The notes under the pieces: model-generated
Told to the model about the DNA's origin: nothing
What the model saw: only the letters and a program-made list of their open reading frames with translations
Database searches by the model: none
From: Escherichia coli O127:H6 str. E2348/69
GTDB taxonomy: Bacteria > Pseudomonadota > Gammaproteobacteria > Enterobacterales > Enterobacteriaceae
Assembly: GCF_000026545.1 (NCBI RefSeq)
Contig: NC_011601.1
DNA: 64,000 nucleotides
Direction: 5' to 3' (one strand)
Made by a program: the position numbers and the translations under genes
Shown here: positions 8,534 to 52,474 of the stretch, in pieces
Layout: each line of letters begins with the position of its first letter
Position numbering within the stretch: the first letter of the stretch is position 1

Positions 8534-8871
8534 TGGGTTTGAAATGATTACTCCCTTGCCTGCAGGAAATCAATGCCACCAGAAACAGAGTATAAAAAAG
8601 GGTGCAGGAGACCAAACCATCACAATTCAGTACGCGGGGTTTTACCCCGCGTGGTGGCTACTTCTTCGATTCGTAAGCGAGAACTGCCTTAAACTCCATA
8701 CCACGTTCTCTGATACTCAACTCACACAACGAGTCGCCTACCATCAACGTGAATCCCAGTACTGTACAACACAGTACGATGATTGCCACAAGGGCATATT
8801 TTGTCAGCATGTCTGTGTAAGTTCACAGAGATATTGCAATTGCCTCCGGATAAGTAAGGGGAGATTGCACT

Positions 8872-10146
8872 ATGCAAATGCAGCATCTGATGGTTGGCTA
8901 TCCTAAGTACTACCAAACGGCCGATTATGCGTTGAGGCTTTCAGTGATGGCTGATATAGCAACAATGAGAATGAAGGCTCTGCACTTCTGGGATAAACAC
9001 GGTATTTCTGCAGCTTCTGAAGCCTTTGGCGTGTCCTGCCGCACGCTTTACTGGTGGCGTCAGTTACTGAACAAGGAAGGACCTGAGGGGCTAATCCCGC
9101 ACAGTAAGGCACCTCTGGTGCGACGAAAAAAACACTGGCATCCCGATGTGCTGAAAGAGATTCGACGCCTCAGGACAGAGCTGCCGAACCTCGGTAAAGA
9201 GCAGATTTTTGTTCGCCTGAAGCCCTGGTGCGAACAGCGCTATCTGGCCTGTCCGAGTGTTTCCACCATCGGCAGAATGATCGCTGCCGCACATGATAAA
9301 ATGCGGATGATACCTGTGCGTCTGGGATCGCGGGGGAAGGCACTGCTTGTCAAAAAGCGGTCTGCCAAACCCCGCAGGCCAAAGCACTACCGCCCGGTAA
9401 AGACAGGTGAGCTCATTGGGATGGACGCCATTGAGCTCAGAATGGGCGAACTGCGTCGCTATGTCATCACCATGATCGACGAATGCAGCAATTACGCGCT
9501 GGCGCTGGCTGTGCCGTCACTCAACAGTGATATCGTCAATCACTTCTTCAGCCGCGCAGCCCGGTTGTTCCCGGTCGGTATCAGCCAGATAATCACAGAT
9601 AACGGAAAAGAGTTCCTGGGAAACTTCGACAAAACGCTGCAGGAAGCCGCTATCAAACACCTCTGGACCTATCCCTACACGCCAAAAATGAACGCTATCT
9701 GTGAACGTTTTAACCGGACGTTAAGAGAGCAGTTTATTGAATTTAATGAGATTTTACTCTTTGAAGATCTGGCGCTATTTAACCAGAAGCTGGCGGAATA
9801 TCTGGTGCTGTATAACAGCAAAAGACCCCACAAGGCGCTCGCACTAATGACGCCCGTGGAATATATTTTAAAAGAGAATAAAAATTGCAATATGTGGTGG
9901 ACCCATACAATGTCTTGCCTCCTTGCAAAGAAGAGACTAACATCCGAATTGCTTAGGTTCGAACGTAGGCCTCAGGTTGATAGAAATATCGCCTGGGGCT
10001 TTTGTCCATCTGGAACCTCGCGAATGCTTAACGCCAGACAGCCTCAAGCACCCAACGCCATTCTATACCTGTTAATTTTCCCTGCGATGTTCACCTTTAA
10101 ATGCCGGAATGCTGCTCGCAAAATAAAAACGCCCCATCATTTCTGA
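8872..10146 (+). CDS. IS-like DDE transposase (integrase-core/rve fold, IS481-family-like); C-terminal ~80 codons probably read-through into flanking DNA
   Basis: N-terminal HTH-like segment (GVSCRTLYWWRQ), then integrase catalytic hallmarks (D in MDAIELR, ITDNGKEF, ICERFNRTL). ORF extends into the cysH terminator hairpin at ~10127..10157. Family assignment by motif recognition only. Confidence 0.6.
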   Translation: MQMQHLMVGYPKYYQTADYALRLSVMADIATMRMKALHFWDKHGISAASEAFGVSCRTLYWWRQLLNKEGPEGLIPHSKAPLVRRKKHWHPDVLKEIRRLRTELPNLGKEQIFVRLKPWCEQRYLACPSVSTIGRMIAAAHDKMRMIPVRLGSRGKALLVKKRSAKPRRPKHYRPVKTGELIGMDAIELRMGELRRYVITMIDECSNYALALAVPSLNSDIVNHFFSRAARLFPVGISQIITDNGKEFLGNFDKTLQEAAIKHLWTYPYTPKMNAICERFNRTLREQFIEFNEILLFEDLALFNQKLAEYLVLYNSKRPHKALALMTPVEYILKENKNCNMWWTHTMSCLLAKKRLTSELLRFERRPQVDRNIAWGFCPSGTSRMLNARQPQAPNAILYLLIFPAMFTFKCRNAARKIKTPHHF

Positions 10147-10157
10147 CAGAGGCGTTT
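10127..10157 (-). terminator. putative intrinsic terminator downstream of cysH
   Basis: Inverted repeat AAACGCC / GGCGTTT (17-nt loop) followed on the minus strand by a T-rich run, immediately 3' of cysH stop (10175). Confidence 0.4.
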
Positions 10158-10174
10158 AATTTATCCGGCAATAT

Positions 10175-26133: not shown

Positions 26134-27054
26134 ATGAGCGCAAGAGTATGGGTACTCGGTGATGCGGTTGTTGATTTATTACCCGAAAGCCAGGGGAGAC
26201 TACTACAGTGTCCTGGCGGGGCGCCTGCTAATGTTGCAGTCGGTATCGCAAGGCTGGGGGGGAAAAGTGCCTTTATTGGCAAAGTTGGCGATGATCCTTT
26301 CGGTCGCTTTATGTATCAGACACTGAGTACAGAAAATGTTGATACACGTTATATGTCTCTTGATCCTCAACAACGCACCTCAATTGTGGCTGTAGGACTT
26401 GATGAGCAAGGAGAAAGAAACTTTACCTTTATGGTACGCCCAAGTGCCGATCTTTTTTTACAACCTGATGACCTTCCTACATTTGGGCCGGGTGAATGGC
26501 TCCATCTTTGTTCCATTGCGCTCAGTGCAGAACCTTCCCGAAGTACCGCATTTCTGGCTATGGAGAAAATACGTCAGGCTGGCGGAAACATCAGTTTTGA
26601 TCCCAATATCCGCAGCGATCTCTGGCAGAGTGAAGCGCTATTAAGAAAATACCTTGATCGCGCGCTTTCGCTGGCGAATATCGCTAAATTGTCCGAAGAA
26701 GAGTTGCTATTCATCAGTGGCGAAAGCCAGGTTCAGCAAGGCGCATATTCATTAGTACAACGTTATTCGTTGACTTTATTGCTTATCACACAAGGAAAAA
26801 ATGGCGTACTTGTGTATTTTCAGGGGCAGTTTATCCACTATCCCGCCAAACCTGTTTCTGTCGTCGATACGACCGGGGCAGGAGATGCTTTTGTCGCTGG
26901 ATTACTTGCAGGTCTGGCTGATTCTGGAATACCAACAAATACCAGACAGCTTGAACGAATCATTGCACAAGCTCAGATTTGTGGTGCTCTGGCGACCACG
27001 GCTAAAGGCGCGATGACCGCCTTACCCCGACAACACGATCTCCCTTCACAATAG
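26134..27054 (+). CDS. scrK: fructokinase (ROK/PfkB ribokinase-family)
   Basis: 306-aa ORF with GGAPANVA and C-terminal DTTGAGDAF motifs; first gene of a scr-type cluster. Confidence 0.85.
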   Translation: MSARVWVLGDAVVDLLPESQGRLLQCPGGAPANVAVGIARLGGKSAFIGKVGDDPFGRFMYQTLSTENVDTRYMSLDPQQRTSIVAVGLDEQGERNFTFMVRPSADLFLQPDDLPTFGPGEWLHLCSIALSAEPSRSTAFLAMEKIRQAGGNISFDPNIRSDLWQSEALLRKYLDRALSLANIAKLSEEELLFISGESQVQQGAYSLVQRYSLTLLLITQGKNGVLVYFQGQFIHYPAKPVSVVDTTGAGDAFVAGLLAGLADSGIPTNTRQLERIIAQAQICGALATTAKGAMTALPRQHDLPSQ

Positions 27055-27105
27055 TGATCCTGCTGTTGTATCTGTAACCCGATTTGTCGTGCCTGTCACA
27101 TTTAC

Positions 27106-27177
27106 TAAATCGGTTTAGCGAAAATAATTGCTCTGGCTAAAAAGTCAGCTTTATTATCAACACCTAAACCGGTTTAG
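27106..27177. promoter_or_regulatory. two putative ScrR operators in scrY promoter region
   Basis: CTAAATCGGTTTAG (27106..27119, near-palindrome) and CTAAACCGGTTTAG (27164..27177, perfect 14-bp palindrome), 45-115 bp upstream of scrY. Confidence 0.55.
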
Positions 27178-27197
27178 CATTTTAGCAATTTTTATAA

Positions 27198-28739
<1,542 letters not shown>

Positions 28740-28747
28740 TACCAGAC

Positions 28748-28770
28748 AGCCTCACGGATGTGAGGCTTTT
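28748..28770 (+). terminator. weak hairpin/partial terminator between scrY and scrA
   Basis: AGCCTCAC-GGAT-GTGAGGCT followed by only TTT; may attenuate rather than terminate. Confidence 0.3.
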
Positions 28771-28799
28771 ACTGAAATAACAATGAATTAGAGGGTTAT

Positions 28800-30170
28800 A
28801 TGGATTTCGATAAAATCGCCCAATCGTTGCTTCCTTTATTAGGTGGTAAGGAGAACATCGCCAGTGCAGCACATTGCGCCACTCGCCTACGGCTGGTACT
28901 GGTTGACGACACACTTGCCGATCAACATGCCATTGGCCAGATTGATGGAGTGAAAGGTTGTTTTCGTAATTCAGGGCAAATGCAAATCATCTTTGGCACC
29001 GGCGTGGTTAATAAAGTCTATGCTGCCTTTATTCAGGTTGCAGGTATTAGCGAATCCAGTAAAGCAGATACCGCTCGACTCGCCGCTCAAAAACTCAATC
29101 CTTTTCAGCGAATAGCACGGCTACTTTCTAATATTTTTGTCCCCATCATTCCAGCCATTGTTGCTTCTGGTTTATTAATGGGGCTCCTGGGAATGGTGAA
29201 AACATATGGCTGGGTGAATGCCGATAATGCGATTTATATCCTGCTGGATATGTGCAGTTCAGCCGCATTTATTATTCTCCCCATCCTTATTGGCTTTACT
29301 GCTGCTCGTGAATTTGGTGGAAATCCTTATCTTGGCGCGACATTAGGAGGGATTCTGACTCACCCGGCACTCACAAATGCCTGGGGCGTTGCTGCGGGAT
29401 TTCAGACAATGAACTTCTTCGGTTTTGAAATCGCCATGATTGGCTATCAGGGAACGGTTTTCCCCGTGCTTCTGGCAGTATGGTTTATGAGCATAGTGGA
29501 AAAACAGTTACGCAGGTTTATCCCTGATGCTCTGGATCTCATTCTGACGCCATTTCTGACTGTCGTCATTTCTGGCTTTATCGCTCTTTTGATTATTGGT
29601 CCGGCAGGACGAGCGTTAGGTGACGGTATCTCTTTCGTTCTCAGCACGCTGATTGCACACGCAGGCTGGTTAGCAGGGTTGTTATTCGGCGGGCTATATT
29701 CAGCGATTGTTATTACGGGTATTCATCATAGCTTCCACGCAATTGAAGCAGGACTTTTAGGTAACCCTGCAATCGGTGTTAATTTCCTGCTGCCTATTTG
29801 GGCAATGGCAAACGTTGCGCAAGGAGGTGCATGTCTGGCGGTATGGTTTAAAACCAAAGATACAAAAATTAAAGCAATCACCCTACCCTCGGCCTTTTCC
29901 GCAATGTTAGGGATTACTGAAGCCGCTATTTTTGGTATCAACCTTCGTTTTGTTAAACCTTTTATTGCGGCCTTAATTGGTGGCGCTGCCGGCGGTGCCT
30001 GGGTTGTCTCTGTTCACGTTTATATGACTGCCGTTGGTCTGACCGCAATACCCGGCATGGCAATCGTTCAGCCAACATCGTTGGTTAATTATATTATTGG
30101 AATGGTGATTGCTTTCGCTGTCGCTTTTAGCCTCTCTTTATTACTCAAATACAAAACGGACGAGGAGTAA
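28800..30170 (+). CDS. scrA: PTS sucrose-specific EIIBC component
   Basis: 456-aa ORF; N-terminal EIIB Cys motif (ASAAHCATRLR) followed by multi-TM EIIC domain. Confidence 0.88.
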   Translation: MDFDKIAQSLLPLLGGKENIASAAHCATRLRLVLVDDTLADQHAIGQIDGVKGCFRNSGQMQIIFGTGVVNKVYAAFIQVAGISESSKADTARLAAQKLNPFQRIARLLSNIFVPIIPAIVASGLLMGLLGMVKTYGWVNADNAIYILLDMCSSAAFIILPILIGFTAAREFGGNPYLGATLGGILTHPALTNAWGVAAGFQTMNFFGFEIAMIGYQGTVFPVLLAVWFMSIVEKQLRRFIPDALDLILTPFLTVVISGFIALLIIGPAGRALGDGISFVLSTLIAHAGWLAGLLFGGLYSAIVITGIHHSFHAIEAGLLGNPAIGVNFLLPIWAMANVAQGGACLAVWFKTKDTKIKAITLPSAFSAMLGITEAAIFGINLRFVKPFIAALIGGAAGGAWVVSVHVYMTAVGLTAIPGMAIVQPTSLVNYIIGMVIAFAVAFSLSLLLKYKTDEE

Positions 30171-31579
30171 TGTCGATGCCTTCACAAATGCCCGCGATTT
30201 TACAGGCAGTGATGAAAGGTCAGTCCAAAGCACTGGCAGATGCCCACTATCCTTGTTGGCATCTCGCTCCAGTCACCGGACTAATGAACGATCCAAATGG
30301 CTTTTGTTGGTCTGGAGGCCGCTATCATCTGTTTTATCAATGGAATCCACTGGCTTGTGATCATAAGTACAAATGTTGGGGGCACTGGAGTTCGACGGAT
30401 TTATTGCACTGGCAGCATGAACCATTAGCGCTAATGCCCGATAAAGAGTACGACCGTAATGGTTGTTACTCAGGAAGCGCGGTTAATAATCAGGGCGTTC
30501 TCACACTTTGCTATACCGGTAATGTTAAGTTTGATGATGGCAGCAGAACGGCATGGCAATGCCTGGCCACCGAAAATAACCAGGGCGGGTTTGATAAACT
30601 AGGCCCTGTCATACCGTTACCTGATGGTTACACCGGACATGTTCGTGATCCAAAAGTCTGGAAGCACAACAGCCAATGGTACATGGTGCTTGGCGCGCAA
30701 GATAAAGAGAAACGGGGGAAAGTGCTGCTGTATTCCTCTGTCGATCTCTATACCTGGTCTTTTCATGGAGAAATTGCTGGTAACGGTCTGAATGAAATAG
30801 ATAACGCAGGATACATGTGGGAATGTCCTGATCTTTTCGCCCTTGATGGTGAATACATTCTCCTCTGTTGCCCCCAGGGAATGGTGCGCGAACATGAGCG
30901 CTATCTGAATACTTATCCCTGCGCCTGGCTACATGGACAGTTTGATTACGAGACAGGCAAATTTACGCATGGCGCTTTCTCAGAGCTGGATGCGGGATTT
31001 GAATTCTATGCACCACAGACGATGGAAGCCCCGGACGGGCGACGATTGCTGGTCGGCTGGATGGGGGTTCCTGATGGCGAAGAGATGTTGCAGCCAACCA
31101 GAAAGCATCATTGGCAGCATCAAATGACCTGTTTTCGCGAACTCTCATTCCAGAAGGGAAAATTGTTTCAGATGCCAATCAGGGAACTCGCGCAACTGCG
31201 TGAAGCTGAACACTTCTGGCAAGGAAAAGCGGATCATGCGCCGCATGTCGAAATTGAACGCCTGGAAATGGACATCATTCCGTCGGGTGAGCTGTATCTG
31301 AATTTTGGCAATGCGCTGGCACTGCATCTTAATGACGATGGTATTCAACTACAGAGGAGAAGCCTTGCAGGGCAAGAGAAACTAACTCGTTACTGGCGAG
31401 GAAGCGTAACGTCACTGAAGATTCTCTGTGACAGTTCCAGCGTAGAGATATTCATCAATAATGGTGAAGGTGTAATGAGTAATCGTTATTTTCCCCATCA
31501 TCCAGCTTCGCTGATATTACAGGGTGAGTCTGACGTCACGTTACGCTACTGGTCGCTACGCGCCTGCATGGTAGAATGA
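30170..31579 (+). CDS. scrB: sucrose-6-phosphate hydrolase (GH32 invertase)
   Basis: 469-aa ORF with GH32 signature MNDPNG and downstream W(M)ECPD; start codon choice near 30170 uncertain. Confidence 0.88.
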
Positions 31580-31604
31580 GGGTTTTGAATTACGGATCCT
31601 CGTC

Positions 31605-32612
31605 GTGAGAAAAACCAAACGCGTTACTATTAAAGACATTGCTGAACTGGCGGGAGTGTCGAAAGCAACCGCCAGTCTGGTTCTCAATGGTCGTGGCAAA
31701 GAGTTACGTGTTGCGCAGGAAACGCGTGAGCGTGTGCTGAGTATTGCCCAACAGCAGCATTATCAGCCCAGCATTCATGCCCGCTCATTACGGGACAACC
31801 GCAGTCATACCATTGGTCTCGTCGTTCCTGAAATCACTAACTACGGATTTGCAGTATTTTCCCATGAACTGGAAACATTGTGTCGGGAAGCGGGCGTCCA
31901 GCTCCTCATATCCTGTACTGATGAAAATCCTTCACAGGAAACAATGGTGGTGAACAATATGATTGCCCGCCAGGTTGATGGGTTAATCGTCGCATCCAGT
32001 ATGCTGCATGATAATGACTATCAAAAACTTAGCGAGCAATTACCTGTTGTGTTGTTCGATCGCCACATGAACGGCAGTACATTGCCATTGGTCATTACTG
32101 ACTCTGTTTCTCCCACCGCCGCTCTGGTGGCAGATATTGCACGGAGTCACCCGGATGAATTCTATTTTCTGGGCGGACAACCCCGTTTGTCACCGACTCG
32201 CGATCGACTGGAAGGATTTACACAAGGCTTGCAGCAAGCCGGAGTAACGCTACAACCTGAATGGATTATTCACGGTAATTATCATCCGAGCTCAGGCTAT
32301 GAAATGTTTGCCGCGCTATGCGCTCGTTTAGGACGTCCCCCTAAAGCCTTATTCACTGCCGCTTGTGGATTACTGGAAGGCGTTCTGCGCTATATGAGCC
32401 AATATAATTTACTCGACAGTAAAATACACCTGGCGAGTTTTGATGATCATTACTTGTATGATTCACTTTCGGTAAGAATCGACACAATACAACAGGATAA
32501 TCGCCAACTTGCTTTTCACTGCTTTGAACTTATTTCGCAACTGATTGAAGGTGAAACGCCATCCCCATTACAGCGTTATCTTCCTGCCAGTCTACAAAAA
32601 CGCTACCGATAA
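31605..32612 (+). CDS. scrR: LacI-family transcriptional repressor of the sucrose regulon
   Basis: 335-aa ORF (GTG start) with N-terminal [26 protein letters not shown] and periplasmic-binding-protein-like effector domain. Confidence 0.85.
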
Positions 32613-33368: not shown

Positions 33369-33661
33369 AGCATTCTCTGTGAAGTGGATAATTGTTAATT
33401 ATTGCAGATCTCGCCGCAATATTCATGCTTTATTAACATTCTGTTACAGGCAGGTTTAAAGAAAAAAGCGAAACATATCGTTAATAATAAAAGGGAGTGA
33501 CATATTATGTCAGAAAGAAATAAAGTAAAGGGATTTTATCATGTCAAAAACATTCACCATAATTATATTTATCTTTTCTGTATTCATTTTTAATTATAAC
33601 GAATCTCAAATTACCGATACCGCCGTCAATTTATTTATCCAGCTTTAATAGGACATTTATA

Positions 33662-37632: not shown

Positions 37633-37844
37633 TTAGGTTGAAAAGACGATGGAATAACCAGGACGGGAAAGCAGTATACCCGAACATGACCTGTGCCACA
37701 AACTTTCATTATCCCTCCTCTTCGCCAGCGCACTATTGAAATCAGGAGTGAGAAAATAGCCCCTTTGGGGTAAATGTTTTTGACGCAAATCAAGCGCTTG
37801 TCATTTAAAAAATGACACAAATCGCGCTTGACCGCGTAATTCCC

Positions 37845-38636
37845 TTAGAGATCAATTTCCTGCCGTTTTACCTGTTGCCAGACTTCTTCCATTGTTTCGA
37901 GGTCAACACCTGTCATTTCCAGTCCACGCGCGGCAACAATACGCTCCACTTCGCGAAAACGACGCTCGAATTTTTCGTTCGCTTTTTGCAATGCGATTTC
38001 CGCTTTTGTCCCTAAATGACGAGCCAGATTGACCGTGGCAAACAGCAGGTCACCCATTTCCTCCTCCAGTTTAGCCTGGTCGACAACAGCCTGCCGCGCC
38101 TCGTACATCACCTCGTCGATCTCTTCGTAGACTTTATCGACTACCGGACCAAGCGTCGTCCAGTCGAAACCAACGTTGGCGCAACGTTTCTGGATTTTTT
38201 GCGCACGCATTAAAGCCGGTAAACTACGAGGAATATCGTCCAGCGCCGAATGCTGCGCTTTCTGCGCGCGCTCTTCGGTTTTGATTTGCTCCCAACGGGC
38301 AAGCACTTCACTACTATTTTCGGCAGAACTGTCAGCAAAAACATGCGGATGGCGACGCTCTAATTTATCGCTAATAGCAGCGCAAATATCATTAAAGTCA
38401 AAGCGCCCTTCTTCCTGAGCCATTTGTGCGTAAAACACCACCTGGAACAGCAGATCGCCCAGTTCACCGCGCAGATCGTCAAAATCTTCACGGGCGATGG
38501 CGTCCAGCACCTCGTAGGTTTCTTCAAGGGTGTAAGGCGCAATGGTGGCAAATGTCTGCTCTTTATCCCACGGGCAGCCGTTTTCCGGGTCGCGCAGGCG
38601 CTGCATGATGGTGAGCAAACGGTCGATTTGATTCAT
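37845..38636 (-). CDS. mazG: nucleoside triphosphate pyrophosphohydrolase MazG
   Basis: 263-aa ORF with tandem MazG domains; downstream of mazEF. Confidence 0.9.
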   Translation of the reverse strand: MNQIDRLLTIMQRLRDPENGCPWDKEQTFATIAPYTLEETYEVLDAIAREDFDDLRGELGDLLFQVVFYAQMAQEEGRFDFNDICAAISDKLERRHPHVFADSSAENSSEVLARWEQIKTEERAQKAQHSALDDIPRSLPALMRAQKIQKRCANVGFDWTTLGPVVDKVYEEIDEVMYEARQAVVDQAKLEEEMGDLLFATVNLARHLGTKAEIALQKANEKFERRFREVERIVAARGLEMTGVDLETMEEVWQQVKRQEIDL

Positions 38637-38707
38637 TGAATTATCCTGAAAATTGCGGGTCCGTCAGGTGGAAACCTGTGACCAGAATAGAAGTGAGTTA
38701 GTAACAC

Positions 38708-39043
38708 CTACCCAATCAGCACGTTAATTTTGGCTTTAATGAGTTGTAATTCCTCTGGAGCAACTGTTCCTTTCTTCGTTGCTCCTCTTGCCCGCCAGGC
38801 GATACTTTTTACCTGATCAGCTAACGCTACGCCATCACGTTCCTGACCGGATAGAACAACTTCGAACGGATATCCTTTTGATTGCGTTGTACAAGGAACA
38901 CACAGACACATACCTGTTTTGTTGTTGTACATGAACGGACTCAGGACAACAGCCGGACGATGTCCGGCTTGCTCGCTACCTTTTGTCGGGTCAAAATCAA
39001 CCCAAATCAGATCGCCCGTATCGGGTACGTATCGGCTTACCAT
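38708..39043 (-). CDS. mazF: endoribonuclease toxin MazF
   Basis: 111-aa [22 protein letters not shown]..., PemK/MazF fold. Confidence 0.93.
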   Translation of the reverse strand: MVSRYVPDTGDLIWVDFDPTKGSEQAGHRPAVVLSPFMYNNKTGMCLCVPCTTQSKGYPFEVVLSGQERDGVALADQVKSIAWRARGATKKGTVAPEELQLIKAKINVLIG

Positions 39044-39291
39044 TACCAGACTTCCTTATCTTTCGGCTCCCCCCAGTCGATATTCTCGTGGAGGTTTTCC
39101 GGCGTGATGTCGTTGACCAGTTCAGCAAGCGTAAATACGGGCTCTTTACGCACTGGCTCAATAATTAATTTGCCATCCACCAGGTCAATCTTCACTTCAT
39201 CATCAATATTCAGATTGAGCGCCTGCATTAACGTAGCCGGGATCCGCACCGCCGGTGAATTTCCCCAACGCTTTACGCTACTGTGGATCAT
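39043..39291 (-). CDS. mazE: antitoxin MazE
   Basis: 82-aa [21 protein letters not shown]... (AbrB/SpoVT-type); overlaps mazF start. Confidence 0.93.
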
Positions 39292-39316
39292 AACCCTTTC
39301 CTCAAACCGCTATCAT

Positions 39317-39345
39317 ATGTAGATACAGTATATATCAATCTACAT
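39317..39345. promoter_or_regulatory. mazEF promoter operator (alternating palindrome)
   Basis: ATGTAGATACAGTATATATCAATCTACAT, dyad ATGTAGAT/ATCTACAT, 26-54 bp upstream of mazE start. Confidence 0.6.
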
Positions 39346-39368
39346 TGTAGATACGAACAAGTTTCGGC

Positions 39369-41603
39369 CTAACTCCCGTGCAACCGACGCGCGTCGATAA
39401 CATCCGGCACCTGGTTGAGTTTACCCAGCACGCGACCCAGCACTTGCAGGTTGTAAATCTCAATGGTCATGTCGATGGTCGCCAGTTGCTGTTTGGTGTC
39501 GCTACGGCTGGCAACGCCAAGTACGTTCACCTTCTCGTTGGCGAGAATGGTCGTGATATCACGTAACAACCCACTACGATCATTAGCCACCACGCGGACC
39601 ACCAGCGAATATCCGGCGGAGTAGCTCTCACCCCATACCGCGTCAACAATGCGTTCTGGCGCATGGGAGCGCAGTTCCGCCAATTGTTCGCAATCGGCGC
39701 GGTGTACTGAAATACCGCGCCCCTGGGTAATGAAGCCGACAATCTCATCTCCAGGAATCGGCTGGCAGCAGCGCGCGATGTGGTGCATCAGGTTACCAAC
39801 ACCTTCTACCACCACACGACCGTTATCTTTACTGCGGTTTTGCGGCGTATAGCTTTTTTGCTGAAGTTGCTTCAGCGCGGCGGCATCCTGCTCTTCGGCA
39901 CTCGGCTTATTAAATTGCGATTGCAGGAAGTTCACCATCTGATTGAGACGGATATCCCCGCCACCAATTGCCGCCAGCAACTCGTCGACATCATTGAAGT
40001 TGTAACGCGGCAGCAGATGTTTTTCTGCTTCTTTCAGGCTGATCCCCAGATGTTCCAGCTCGTCGTCAAGGATTTGCCGCCCAGCCAGAATGTTTTTGTC
40101 ACGGTCCTGTTTACGGAACCAGGCGTGAATTTTCGAACGCCCACGGCTGGTTGTGACGTAACCGAGGTTTGGGTTTAACCAGTCACGGCTGGGGTTCGGC
40201 TGTTTCTGGGTGATAATTTCAATCTGGTCGCCCATCTGCAGCTGGTAGGTGAACGGCACAATGCGCCCGCCAATTTTTGCCCCGATGCAGCGGTGTCCGA
40301 CATCACTGTGGATGTGGTAAGCGAAGTCCAGCGGTGTTGATCCCGCAGGCAAATCAACGACATCACCTTTCGGCGTAAAGACGTACACCCGGTCGTCAAA
40401 GACCTGGCTACGTACTTCGTCGAGCATTTCGCCGGAATCAGCCATCTCTTCCTGCCACGCAATCAGTTTACGCAGCCAGGCAATCCGGTCTTCATGTCCC
40501 GAACGTGCGCCGCCAGCTGCCGCGCCCTCTTTATATTTCCAGTGTGCAGCAACACCCAACTCTGCATCTTCATGCATCTGTTTGGTGCGGATTTGGATCT
40601 CAACGGTTTTGCCACCCGGCCCCAGAACCACGGTATGAATAGACTGATAACCGTTTGGTTTCGGGTTAGCGACGTAATCGTCAAACTCATCCGGCAGGTG
40701 GCGATAGTGAGTGTGCACTATCCCCAGTGCGGCATAACAATCCTGTAAACGCTCGGCGACAATACGTACCGCACGCACATCAAACAGCTCATCGAAGGCG
40801 AGGTTCTTTTTCTGCATTTTGCGCCAGATGCTGTAGATGTGTTTCGGACGACCATACACTTCAGCTTTAACGCCTTCAGCTTTCATCTCAGCGCGCAGAT
40901 GGCCGACAAACTCTTCGATATAGTGTTCGCGGTCAAGACGGCGTTCATGCAGCAGTTTTGCGATGCGTTTGTATTCGGTCGGGTGCAGATAACGGAAGCA
41001 GTAATCTTCCAGCTCCCATTTCAGTTGCCCAATCCCAAGACGGTTCGCCAACGGCGCGTAGATATTGGTGCACTCTTTTGCCGCCAGTACGCGTTCATCT
41101 TCCGGCGCATCTTTTACTTCGCGCAGGTGAGCAATACGCTCCGCCAGTTTGATGACCACGCAGCGAAAATCATCGACCATCGCCAATAACATCCGGCGAA
41201 CGTTATCGACCTGTTCGGAGGAAACAGAATCGGTATGCGTCGCTTTCAGCTGGCGGATCGCCGCCATATCACGCACGCCGTGAATAAGGTTAACGACCGA
41301 CTTACCGACGCTCTCACGCAGCACATCTTCGCTGACTACGTTGGCATCGGCCAGAGGGAACAGCAGCGCCGCCCGCAGCGTGTCAATGTCCATACTTAAT
41401 GTCGAGAGGATCTCCACCATCTCAACACCACGCCACAATAACAGACTGGCATCCGGATGCCCCTGCGTCTGTTGCAGACAATACGCCCAGGTTTCGGCTA
41501 AGCACTCACACGACTTCTGGCTGGTAATACCCAGACTTGCGATCCATTTTTCCGGATCAAATTCACCAGCCTTATTGATATGTGCACTTCTTACCGCAAC
41601 CAT
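39369..41603 (-). CDS. relA: GTP pyrophosphokinase ((p)ppGpp synthetase I)
   Basis: 744-aa ORF, RelA/SpoT family (HD-like, synthetase, TGS, ACT regions). Confidence 0.96.
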   Translation of the reverse strand: MVAVRSAHINKAGEFDPEKWIASLGITSQKSCECLAETWAYCLQQTQGHPDASLLLWRGVEMVEILSTLSMDIDTLRAALLFPLADANVVSEDVLRESVGKSVVNLIHGVRDMAAIRQLKATHTDSVSSEQVDNVRRMLLAMVDDFRCVVIKLAERIAHLREVKDAPEDERVLAAKECTNIYAPLANRLGIGQLKWELEDYCFRYLHPTEYKRIAKLLHERRLDREHYIEEFVGHLRAEMKAEGVKAEVYGRPKHIYSIWRKMQKKNLAFDELFDVRAVRIVAERLQDCYAALGIVHTHYRHLPDEFDDYVANPKPNGYQSIHTVVLGPGGKTVEIQIRTKQMHEDAELGVAAHWKYKEGAAAGGARSGHEDRIAWLRKLIAWQEEMADSGEMLDEVRSQVFDDRVYVFTPKGDVVDLPAGSTPLDFAYHIHSDVGHRCIGAKIGGRIVPFTYQLQMGDQIEIITQKQPNPSRDWLNPNLGYVTTSRGRSKIHAWFRKQDRDKNILAGRQILDDELEHLGISLKEAEKHLLPRYNFNDVDELLAAIGGGDIRLNQMVNFLQSQFNKPSAEEQDAAALKQLQQKSYTPQNRSKDNGRVVVEGVGNLMHHIARCCQPIPGDEIVGFITQGRGISVHRADCEQLAELRSHAPERIVDAVWGESYSAGYSLVVRVVANDRSGLLRDITTILANEKVNVLGVASRSDTKQQLATIDMTIEIYNLQVLGRVLGKLNQVPDVIDARRLHGS

Positions 41604-43008: not shown

Positions 43009-45765
43009 ATGACCAACTACAGCCTGCGCGCACGCATGATGATTCTGATCCTGGCACCGACCGTCCTTATTGGTTTATTGCTGAGTATCTTTTTCGTTGT
43101 GCATCGCTATAACGACTTGCAGCGTCAACTGGAAGATGCCGGAGCCAGCATTATTGAGCCGCTTGCAGTTTCTACTGAATATGGCATGAGCCTGCAAAAC
43201 CGCGAATCTATCGGTCAGTTAATAAGCGTACTGCATCGTCGCCATTCCGATATTGTTCGCGCGATTTCGGTTTATGATGAAAATAACCGACTCTTTGTCA
43301 CCTCCAATTTTCATCTTGATCCCTCATCAATGCAGCTCGGCAGCAACGTGCCGTTTCCTCGCCAGCTCACTGTCACCCGTGACGGCGATATTATGATCCT
43401 CCGCACGCCGATTATTTCTGAGAGTTACTCCCCCGACGAATCGCCCAGTAGCGATGCCAAAAATAGTCAAAATATGCTGGGATATATTGCGCTGGAGCTG
43501 GATCTTAAATCGGTTCGCTTGCAGCAATATAAAGAGATCTTTATTTCCAGCGTGATGATGCTGTTTTGTATCGGTATTGCGCTTATTTTTGGCTGGCGCT
43601 TAATGCGCGATGTAACCGGTCCGATTCGCAATATGGTGAATACCGTCGACCGCATCCGTCGCGGGCAACTCGACAGCCGTGTGGAAGGATTTATGCTCGG
43701 CGAGCTGGATATGCTGAAAAACGGTATCAACTCGATGGCAATGTCGCTGGCTGCTTATCACGAAGAGATGCAGCACAATATCGACCAGGCGACGTCCGAT
43801 CTGCGTGAAACGCTGGAGCAGATGGAAATTCAGAACGTTGAGTTGGATCTGGCGAAAAAGCGCGCCCAGGAAGCGGCGCGTATTAAATCCGAGTTTCTTG
43901 CAAATATGTCACACGAGCTGCGTACACCACTGAATGGTGTTATTGGCTTTACCCGCCTGACGCTGAAAACAGAATTAACACCAACGCAGCGCGATCACCT
44001 GAATACGATTGAACGTTCGGCAAATAATTTGCTGGCAATTATTAATGATGTTCTCGACTTCTCGAAACTGGAAGCCGGTAAGCTGATTCTGGAAAGTATT
44101 CCATTCCCACTACGCAGCACGCTGGATGAAGTCGTTACCCTGCTGGCACATTCTTCTCACGATAAAGGGCTGGAACTGACGCTCAATATTAAAAGCGACG
44201 TGCCTGATAACGTTATCGGCGACCCACTACGATTACAGCAAATCATCACTAACCTGGTGGGGAATGCAATTAAATTCACCGAGAATGGCAACATTGATAT
44301 TCTGGTAGAAAAACGTGCGCTGAGTAATACCAAAGTGCAGATTGAAGTGCAGATTCGGGATACCGGCATTGGTATTCCTGAACGCGATCAATCGCGCTTA
44401 TTCCAGGCCTTCCGACAGGCTGATGCCAGTATTTCCCGCCGTCATGGTGGCACCGGGCTGGGGCTGGTGATTACACAAAAACTGGTTAATGAAATGGGCG
44501 GCGATATTTCGTTTCATAGCCAGCCGAATCGCGGTTCAACTTTCTGGTTCCACATTAATCTCGATCTGAATCCGAACATTATTATTGAAGGGCCATCCAC
44601 CCAGTGCCTCGCCGGTAAACGCCTGGCCTATGTCGAACCAAACTCCGCAGCAGCGCAATGCACGCTGGATATTTTAAGTGAAACGCCGCTGGAGGTGGTT
44701 TATAGCCCAACGTTCTCCGCGCTGCCTCCCGCGCATTACGACATGATGTTGTTAGGCATCGCGGTGACCTTCCGCGAGCCGCTAACAATGCAACATGAGC
44801 GATTAGCGAAAGCGGTATCGATGACCGATTTCCTGATGCTGGCACTTCCTTGCCATGCACAAGTCAATGCTGAAAAACTCAAGCAAGATGGTATCGGCGC
44901 GTGTCTGCTGAAACCATTAACACCTACGCGCCTGTTGCCTGCCCTGACGGAATTTTGTCATCACAAACAAAACACGCTTTTGCCTGTAACCGATGAAAGT
45001 AAGCTGGCAATGACAGTCATGGCGGTTGATGACAACCCCGCTAACCTGAAACTTATCGGCGCATTGCTGGAAGATATGGTGCAACATGTGGAACTTTGCG
45101 ATAGCGGGCATCAGGCGGTTGAACGGGCGAAACAGATGCCGTTCGATTTGATCTTAATGGATATTCAAATGCCGGACATGGACGGCATTCGGGCCTGCGA
45201 ACTCATCCACCAGCTCCCCCATCAGCAACAAACGCCGGTTATCGCGGTAACGGCGCATGCAATGGCCGGGCAAAAAGAGAAGCTGCTTGGCGCAGGGATG
45301 AGCGATTATCTGGCGAAACCGATTGAAGAAGAGCGATTGCATAATTTGTTGTTGCGCTACAAGCCTGGCAGCGGTATTTCCTCTCGCGTCGTGACGCCCG
45401 AAGTCAACGAAATTGTGGTGAACCCGAATGCGACCCTCGACTGGCAACTGGCACTACGCCAGGCAGCAGGAAAAACCGATTTAGCGCGCGATATGCTGCA
45501 AATGTTACTCGATTTCCTGCCTGAAGTTCGCAACAAAGTTGAGGAACAGCTGGTTGGAGAAAACCCGGAAGGCCTGGTTGATTTGATTCATAAACTGCAT
45601 GGCAGTTGCGGCTATAGCGGTGTGCCGCGTATGAAGAATATCTGCCAACTGATCGAACAACAGCTACGTAGCGGTACTAAAGAAGAAGATTTAGAGCCGG
45701 AGCTGCTGGAACTGTTGGACGAGATGGATAATGTAGCGCGCGAAGCCAGCAAAATTCTCGGGTAA
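43009..45765 (+). CDS. barA: hybrid sensor histidine kinase BarA
   Basis: 918-aa ORF: TM sensor, HAMP, HisKA (SHELRTPLN), HATPase, receiver (DIQMPDMDG), Hpt. Confidence 0.95.
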
Positions 45766-52105: not shown

Positions 52106-52474
52106 AATAAAAAAAGGGAGCACTGTATTCACAGTGCTCCCGGTTCGTTTCGCAGCATTCCGGCTACTTTTATTGCTCCCTGCTCATCCTTGACAACTTT
52201 TCCTCTGGCCTTACGGCCAATCGTTCATCCTGAACTATTGCTTCCTGCTCACACCACCCCGATGTGATACTTCATCCTGAAGTGTTCCTGGCCTTCCTGA
52301 CCCACCGAATCATCCTGACCGGTTCTCATTCTCCATCCTGGAGGTGTCCTTTAACGCGTCCTGCGTCATCCTCTTCGCTTCATCCAGAAGCCTTTCCCTG
52401 AAACACCATCCTGGTGTGTCCTTCAGAAGTGTCATCATCCTGATGTTCACTTCGTTGTCTGACTCCCTGTCGAC
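52106..52474 (-). ncRNA. csrB: CsrB small regulatory RNA (CsrA-sequestering)
   Basis: ~369 nt; transcript begins GUCGACAGGGAG...; about 18 GGA-containing repeats (seen as CATCCTG/TCCTG on the given strand); ends in hairpin GGGAGCACUGUGAAUACAGUGCUCCC + U7 (A-run 52108..52114). Confidence 0.9.

Follow-up and report, generated by a model that had tools for sequence, protein, structure and literature searches.

A canonical, genetically intact relA-mazE-mazF-mazG locus and an IS-split hok/sokX locus in Escherichia coli O127:H6 strain E2348/69

The window analyzed here, a stretch of 64,000 nucleotides from Escherichia coli O127:H6 strain E2348/69 (contig NC_011601.1), contains the genes relA, mazE, mazF and mazG, in that order and all on the minus strand. 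Gene calls were taken from an ORF list and from the RefSeq annotation of the identical record NZ_LT827011.1. Positions 37845 to 41603 extend exactly from the mazG stop codon to the relA start codon, and coordinates and annotation agree with the first-pass annotation that mazG follows, and relA precedes, the mazEF pair. The stop codon of mazE and the start codon of mazF share 1 nt (TAATG; GGTAATGG). Features of the locus and its surroundings, together with a second toxin-antitoxin (TA) locus elsewhere in the window, are as follows.

39369-41603, minus strand: relA, GTP diphosphokinase / (p)ppGpp synthetase I, 744 aa (ORF; WP_000226815.1)
39292-39368, minus strand: relA-mazE intergenic region, 77 nt, with the mazEF promoter and operator (K-12 comparison)
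39317-39352, no strand assigned: alternating palindrome / MazE operator core (inverted-repeat search; same as K-12)
39043-39291, minus strand: mazE, antitoxin, 82 aa (ORF; WP_000581937.1)
38708-39043, minus strand: mazF, endoribonuclease toxin, 111 aa (ORF; WP_000254750.1)
39017-39019, minus strand: mazF codon 9, with ACG (Thr) in place of the ATG (Met) of K-12 (K-12 comparison)
39003-39402, plus strand: region homologous to the antisense RNA aMEF, K-12 b4844 (K-12 annotation, coordinates transferred by alignment)
38637-38707, minus strand: mazF-mazG spacer, 71 nt (70 nt in K-12)
37845-38636, minus strand: mazG, nucleoside triphosphate pyrophosphohydrolase, 263 aa (ORF; WP_001071648.1)
37783-37837, minus strand: stable hairpin just 3' of the mazG stop codon (RNA fold)
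8658-10053: type I hok/sokX locus, split by an IS (Pfam, Rfam and sokX match)

All four proteins of the relA-mazEFG locus exceed the curated Pfam cut-offs by a wide margin. RelA has the full architecture of a long RSH protein, with HD_4, RelA_SpoT, TGS, RelA_AH_RIS and ACT_4 domains in that order, and MazG carries two MazG domains (PF03819) in tandem (E=1.6e-39). MazE matches the MazE_antitoxin family (AbrB/SpoVT-type, PF04014; E=3.5e-14); it combines an N-terminal MazE/AbrB DNA-binding domain with a C-terminal toxin-binding tail, and its gene lies directly upstream of mazF and overlaps it. Residues 9-109 of MazF match PemK_toxin (PF02452) with E=5e-24 and 85 bits (cut-off, 23.1). Over residues 1-111 MazF is identical at 110 of 111 positions to the E. 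coli MazF chains of the solved structures 3nfc, 5ck9 and 1ub4, the single mismatch being at position 9. From this 99% identity to a characterized protein we infer that MazF is probably an ACA-specific endoribonuclease whose activity is neutralized by MazE. The pair had been described as a complete type II TA system with overlapping genes, and the 1-nt overlap and the Pfam support for both proteins bear this out.

The first-pass annotation had also called the locus intact and had proposed an alignment to K-12 as the check, in which frameshift or nonsense mutations would speak against the claim. In a base-by-base comparison of the four genes with those of K-12 MG1655, 75 nucleotide differences were found among 3612 coding bases, and 74 of these are synonymous. 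The differences comprise 50 in relA, 17 in mazG and one in mazE, all synonymous, and seven in mazF, six of them synonymous; the remaining difference replaces methionine 9 of MazF with threonine (M9T) and is thus the sole amino acid change across RelA, MazE, MazF and MazG. The four genes are full length, equal in length to those of K-12, and show no internal stop codon, frameshift or change of start or stop codon relative to K-12, so that inactivating mutations in relA, mazE, mazF or mazG are ruled out by this gene-by-gene comparison. The ratio of 74 synonymous differences to 1 non-synonymous difference argues that the four genes are under purifying selection. Because the locus is a 97-98% identical, syntenic ortholog of a characterized one, chance resemblance is not a concern. 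Nor is the locus unusual within the species: the 5.5-kb relA-mazEFG region was found in 5425 of 5426 complete E. coli genomes, and in 5421 of them at least 80% of it lies in one place.

Upstream of mazE, an inverted-repeat search recovered the alternating palindrome noted previously, with the same sequence as in K-12. On the coding strand its arms are ATCTACA (39352-39346), TGTAGAT (39344-39338) and ATCTACAT (39324-39317). The middle arm (39338-39345) can pair both with 39346-39352, 1 nt apart, and with 39317-39324, 13 nt apart, and the palindrome ATATAT of site "a" lies between the operator arms at 39329-39335. The relA-mazE intergenic region differs from that of K-12 at two positions (39357 and 39361), both upstream of the palindrome, and is otherwise identical. 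In K-12 the mazEF operator "cab" spans 47 bp and contains three MazE-dimer sites (PMC4333400). The K-12-identical "cab" operator upstream of mazE, with its ATATAT site, is therefore a predicted binding site for MazE in E2348/69.

The region homologous to aMEF lies antisense to the 5' end of mazF, the whole of mazE, the intergenic region and the 3' end of relA. It shows 4 differences from K-12 in 400 nt (99% identity), and the 75-bp aMEF promoter (38928-39002) shows 3, all of them synonymous SNPs in mazF. In K-12, aMEF, which has a non-canonical promoter, tunes the expression of mazEF (PMC8749433). This non-coding RNA is the sole documented plus-strand product over mazEF and relA; plus-strand ORFs there, such as one of 146 aa at 38882-39322, were treated as artefactual frames that arise antisense to strongly conserved genes. 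The mazF-mazG spacer differs from that of K-12 by a 1-nt indel immediately after the mazF stop codon, where E2348/69 has the extra base, and by 2 substitutions. It includes a promoter-like match (38667-38640); matches of this kind are no more numerous in the region than in shuffled sequence. The hairpin downstream of mazG has a folding energy of -24.2 kcal/mol (z=-3.36; none of 200 shuffles was as stable) and differs from K-12 at one position. A consensus scan for intrinsic terminators called none on the minus strand after mazG, and its overall counts did not exceed those for shuffled sequence. As the hairpin lacks a U-tract, it is listed only as a possible element, which may mark the end of the operon or contribute to RNA stability.

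The earlier statement that mazEF is the only TA or defense-like module in the window does not hold, as a type I hok/sokX locus is also present. The Hok coding sequence matches Pfam HOK_GEF (E=5.7e-10), the hok leader matches Rfam RF01794 over the whole model (104.6 bits), and a sokX homolog matches at 55 of 59 positions. A hok/sok locus is one unit of about 0.5 kb comprising the coding sequence, the folded mRNA leader and the antisense Sok RNA; here that contiguity is lost. An IS of 1095 bp, accompanied by a 6-bp target duplication, is inserted in the hok start codon and separates the leader and SD from the hok ATG, which makes this a disrupted hok/sok locus. It occupies the site at which K-12 carries CRISPR-Cas I-E. 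E2348/69 has no CRISPR-Cas I-E there, and a search of the window with up to 3 mismatches allowed found no remnants of CRISPR I-E repeats. K-12 has lost the hok coding sequence, and the junction there coincides to the nucleotide with the IS insertion in E2348/69. Local blastn gave no significant similarity that would identify the K-12 junction as a remnant of this IS, and we treat the shared breakpoint as coincidental or unexplained. The TA and defense inventory of the window thus needs to be corrected by adding the IS-split hok/sokX locus and by noting that CRISPR-Cas I-E is missing at the K-12 site.

By analogy with the K-12 ortholog, the module would be expected to work as follows. MazF would act as an ACA-specific endoribonuclease kept inactive in the MazE-MazF complex. 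Because MazE would be labile, being degraded by ClpAP/Lon, a block in mazEF expression would free MazF, leading to mRNA cleavage and an arrest of translation. MazE, with help from MazF, would repress its own promoter through the three-site "cab" operator formed by the alternating palindrome, and aMEF would fine-tune the expression of mazEF. MazG, encoded downstream, would hydrolyze NTPs and (p)ppGpp and would thereby limit the signal made by RelA, which is encoded upstream.

The one amino acid difference from K-12 raises the question of whether a structurally intact locus might nevertheless encode a MazF that is hypomorphic, inactive or altered in its binding of MazE, so that the TA pair has decayed or been retuned. 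That M9T is the lone non-synonymous change of 75, and that residue 9 has the nearly invariant D8 and G10 as its neighbors where the PemK domain begins, could be read in this way. However, when complete E. coli genomes were typed by megablast with the exact 57-mer around mazF codon 9, at least 490 carried the T9 allele and 3833 the K-12 allele, and 1008 of the 5426 genomes gave no type; T9 is therefore a common natural allele, and the view that it is private or damaging is rejected. Position 9 is also variable, with A in 50, S in 25, M in 19, E in 8, T in 5, V in 2 and Q and C in one each of 111 MazF orthologs, so that most orthologs have a small or polar residue there. Residues P7, G10, E24, R29 and T52 are nearly invariant in the same set and all are present here. 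E24, R29 and T52 (conserved in 110, 108 and 110 orthologs, respectively) have been implicated in the catalysis or RNA binding of E. coli MazF. Moreover, a dead toxin should relax selection on mazE, yet the MazE protein is identical across phylogroups (WP_000581937.1 is also found in strain NC101 and in O157:H7). We therefore regard a defective or altered T9 toxin as very improbable, and M9T is most likely functionally neutral, as judged from these alignments. The same SNP (39018) also falls at position +16 of aMEF, as numbered on the K-12 transcript, and one could imagine that this B2-lineage change, acting through MazF residue 9 and the antisense RNA together with the three SNPs in the aMEF promoter, is adaptive and has retuned either the activity of MazF or the expression of mazEF in EPEC/ExPEC lineages relative to K-12; we give this idea very little credence.

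A different issue is whether "stress module" is the right name for the locus. This label is a functional reading, namely programmed death triggered by relA and ppGpp, and it is openly debated (PMC3924284), with reversible stasis and persistence as the other roles proposed for mazEF. The alternative is that mazEF is mainly selfish and addiction-like, or serves in abortive infection against phages, and that history and co-transcription, not a dedicated ppGpp-triggered death circuit, account for its place between relA and mazG. Deleting multiple TA systems from a strain produces little stress phenotype, and there is a report that phage P1 is limited by mazEF; both observations count in favor of this alternative. 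So does the published dispute over whether MazEF brings about programmed death or reversible growth inhibition (PMC3924284). Against it, the near-universal retention of the relA-mazEFG arrangement, in the 5421 genomes noted above, and strong purifying selection are unlike what is seen for a mobile selfish element, and MazE and MazF lie outside the PADLOC defense catalogue. On balance we consider the alternative rather unlikely, with a good deal more weight than either proposal concerning residue 9. It concerns physiology and is compatible with the conclusion drawn from the sequence. When MazE, MazF, MazG and Hok were compared with PADLOC-DB v2, no matches were found at E<=0.01, so that the term "defense-like" rests on the literature. 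For RelA the one match was to the candidate model PDC-S33 and involved the synthetase domain; this was set aside as evidence of a defense function, being homology at the level of the domain only.

Taken together, these results indicate, with a probability that we put at about 95%, that the locus is the canonical chromosomal relA-mazE-mazF-mazG (chpA) locus, genetically intact and carrying an allele typical of some B2-phylogroup strains. E2348/69 thus resembles some 99.9% of complete E. coli genomes in possessing a textbook relA-mazEFG locus, which is ordinary for the species and whose biology is already known; the significance of its presence here is very small. Results on the regulation of MazEF in K-12 (operator, aMEF and MazG) should be reasonably transferable to E2348/69, with the T9 allele of MazF as a caveat.

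The closest characterized counterpart is the chpA locus of K-12 MG1655 (b2784-b2781, with aMEF as b4844), which has the same gene order and annotation; the first-pass annotation had described the arrangement as a known one. The two loci share strand, gene lengths, the 1-nt mazE/mazF overlap, the 77-nt promoter region and the operator palindrome; RelA, MazE and MazG are identical, and both loci are flanked by rlmD and pyrG. K-12 differs in having M9 where E2348/69 has T9, at 74 synonymous sites, at 2 positions upstream of the operator, and by 2 substitutions plus 1 base in the mazF-mazG spacer. The B2 strain NC101 is closer still: its RelA, MazE, MazF (T9, RefSeq protein WP_000254750.1) and MazG have the same accessions as those of E2348/69, and over the 5.5-kb region the two strains share 99.4% DNA identity, with only scattered differences (0.6%), whereas its RlmD and PyrG proteins have different accessions.

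More distant relatives are Kid/Kis (parD of plasmid R1), PemK/PemI and ChpBK/ChpBI, whose toxins share the PemK/MazF fold with the MazF described here; the Kid structure (1m1f) was matched by MazF with E=7.8e-9. Like mazEF, these systems are antitoxin-first operons autoregulated by the antitoxin-toxin complex. They differ from it in that their sequences are distant, they are found on plasmids or at other chromosomal sites unlinked to relA or mazG, and their cleavage specificities are unlike that of MazF.

The relA-mazE-mazF-mazG locus of E2348/69 is a core-genome locus in a common B2 allele, and nothing in it is new. Its four genes are placed alike by the ORF list and by the RefSeq annotation, for which the identical record NZ_LT827011.1 was used (position 3063214 of that record, plus strand, is window position 1):

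37845-38636, minus strand, mazG
38708-39043, minus strand, mazF
39043-39291, minus strand, mazE
39369-41603, minus strand, relA

The locus is flanked by rlmD upstream and pyrG downstream. The span noted in the first-pass annotation, 37845-41603, ends exactly at the mazG stop codon and the relA start codon, and the antitoxin and toxin genes do overlap as described there, mazE and mazF sharing one base in TAATG. A 5.5-kb query around the locus is 100% identical to three E2348/69 assemblies. Of the 5426 complete E. coli genomes it matches 5425, with at least 80% of the query covered in one place in 5421.

The genes were compared one by one with the K-12 segment MG1655 2906000-2918000. Nucleotide differences number 50 in relA, 1 in mazE and 17 in mazG, none of which changes an amino acid, and 7 in mazF, with a single amino-acid change, M9T (ATG to ACG, window 39018). 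In total 75 of 3612 coding bases differ and 74 of the 75 differences are synonymous, a pattern that, judged from the sequences, marks each of the four genes as being under purifying selection. In this alignment, which the first-pass annotation had proposed as a check, lengths and start and stop codons are equal and internal stops are absent in all four genes. All four proteins score far above the curated Pfam cut-offs: MazE matches MazE_antitoxin, MazF matches PemK_toxin, MazG has two MazG domains, and RelA contains HD_4, RelA_SpoT, TGS, AH_RIS and ACT. K-12 alignment, Pfam and annotation confirm the observation and support the earlier reading of an intact module in a known arrangement.

The one replacement might be thought to inactivate the toxin. 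Over its full length MazF aligns with the E. coli MazF chains of known structure, position 9 being the sole difference. Typing with an exact 57-mer centred on SNP 39018 was possible in 4418 complete genomes; the exact sequence is present with the Thr allele (T9) in 490 and with the K-12 Met allele (M9) in 3833. The T9 protein, WP_000254750.1, is also found in B2 strain NC101, whose RelA, MazE and MazG accessions are the same as those of E2348/69; the M9 protein, WP_000254738.1, is found in one O157:H7 strain. A database search supplied 111 MazF orthologues, each 100-120 aa long, for an alignment in which position 9 is Ala in 50, Ser in 25, Met in 19, Glu in 8, Thr in 5, Val in 2, and Gln and Cys in 1 each. 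The invariant or nearly invariant residues P7, G10, E24, R29 and T52 are all kept in E2348/69. Because of this allele frequency, lineage and orthologue variation, M9T appears to be natural variation at a tolerant site, and is probably not inactivating.

The alternating palindrome reported upstream of mazE is real, its arms being found as inverted repeats:

39338-39345, middle arm, complementary to both 39346-39352 and 39317-39324
39329-39335, ATATAT palindrome, between arms 39338-39345 and 39317-39324

The published MazE operator "cab" of K-12 is 47 bp long with ATATAT within site "a", and the E2348/69 palindrome and ATATAT agree with that description (PMC4333400). The relA-mazE spacer differs from K-12 at two bases (39357 and 39361), both upstream of the operator.

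K-12 is also annotated with aMEF (b4844), a 400-nt antisense RNA covering the 5' end of mazF, mazE and the 3' end of relA on the other strand, which has been reported to stimulate mazEF expression and to have a non-canonical promoter inside mazF (PMC8749433). Its counterpart here is:

39003-39402, plus strand, aMEF-homologous stretch, 4 of 400 bases differing from K-12

The M9T SNP is one of these four, at +16, and 3 bases differ in the 75-bp promoter region, each a synonymous mazF SNP. Long plus-strand ORFs over the locus were rejected as genes, being antisense-frame artefacts. An Rfam search of the locus matched no family, and consensus scans, in which promoter-like and terminator-like sites did not outnumber those of shuffled sequence, called no minus-strand terminator after mazG. 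A stable hairpin lies just 3' of the mazG stop codon (37783-37837; -24.2 kcal/mol, z = -3.4); because it has no U-tract, its role can only be inferred. Compared with K-12, the mazF-mazG spacer (38637-38707) has two substitutions and is 71 instead of 70 nt long, the extra base sitting directly after the mazF stop codon. Also in this spacer are a small inverted repeat (CAGGT ttcc ACCTG) and, at 38667-38640, a weak promoter-like match, neither of evident functional significance.

By analogy with the K-12 orthologues, MazF would be an ACA-specific endoribonuclease that MazE, a labile antitoxin, neutralises, and the MazE-MazF complex would act through the three-site operator to repress the mazEF promoter, with antisense tuning added by aMEF. 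MazG would hydrolyse NTPs and (p)ppGpp and thereby counteract what the upstream relA produces. Whether mazEF serves programmed death or reversible stasis or persistence is explicitly debated (PMC3924284), so "stress module" is a label and not a demonstrated function. The PADLOC defence models gave no match for MazE or MazF. RelA residues 209-345, in the synthetase domain, match the PADLOC candidate model PDC-S33 (E = 2.5e-18); this most likely reflects the shared RelA/SpoT-like nucleotidyltransferase domain and is no evidence for a defence role of RelA.

The first-pass annotation also stated that the window contains no other toxin-antitoxin or defense-like module. That claim fails, as a type I hok/sokX locus is present at 8658-10053:

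8658-8810, minus strand, intact annotated CDS of a 50-aa Hok/Gef protein (Pfam HOK_GEF, E = 5.7e-10)
8815-9909, insertion sequence of 1095 bp between hok leader and CDS
9904-10053, minus strand, hok mRNA leader, full-length match to Rfam "sok" model RF01794 (104.6 bits)
9951-10009, plus strand, sokX homologue, 55/59 identities to K-12 SokX RNA

The insertion sequence has a single ORF with HTH and rve domains (Pfam) and is bordered by a 6-bp direct repeat, ATGTCT (8809-8814 and 9910-9915). Relative to an uninterrupted reference, the 541-bp iap-cysH spacer of CP115386.1, it entered inside the hok start codon; target duplication regenerated the ATG, but 1.1 kb now separates it from the Shine-Dalgarno sequence, the leader and sokX. 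The interrupted form occurs in only 35 of the 5426 genomes; the uninterrupted 541-bp version is present in many others. This is a second toxin-antitoxin locus in the window, of type I and probably silenced.

The transposase ORF (8872-10146, plus strand) has 346 codons inside the element, without a stop codon there, and runs 78 codons further through the hok leader/sokX region; in RefSeq it is a pseudogene that lacks the C-terminus. Further copies of the element, at about 93% identity, occur on E. coli chromosomes and plasmids. When window 9904-9915 is compared with NC_000913.3 near 2887300, the K-12 hok leader ends right after AGACATG, at the same nucleotide position as the insertion, and continues with TGTAT, also found at the end of the element. 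Since local blastn detected no remnant of the element in K-12, this shared breakpoint may be coincidental.

Elsewhere in the window, CsrB sRNA is encoded between yqcC and syd (52106-52465, minus strand; full-length Rfam match, 382 bits) and is ordinary. BarA, which controls csrB through UvrY, is encoded at 43009-45765. The queE-ygcG spacer (33369-33661) contains yqcG (b4682, 46 aa) in the K-12 annotation and no feature in the E2348/69 RefSeq record.

Between iap and the sokX/cysH side, K-12 carries cas3-casABCDE-cas1-cas2 and a CRISPR array, whereas the E2348/69 iap-cysH spacer (8534-10174) holds only hok/sokX and the insertion sequence. Cas genes are absent from the whole window, and no type I-E CRISPR repeat was found anywhere in it with up to 3 mismatches allowed. 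Between ygcE and queE (26134-32612) lies a five-gene sucrose utilisation island encoding a kinase, a ScrY-like porin, PTS IIBC, sucrose-6-phosphate hydrolase and a LacI-type regulator; K-12 has just 1.37 kb without annotated genes at this site. CRISPR-less iap-cysH configurations, and the presence of the sucrose genes at the second CRISPR site, have already been described for uropathogenic strains; from strain to strain, that site has a CRISPR array or else the carbohydrate genes (PMC12736100).
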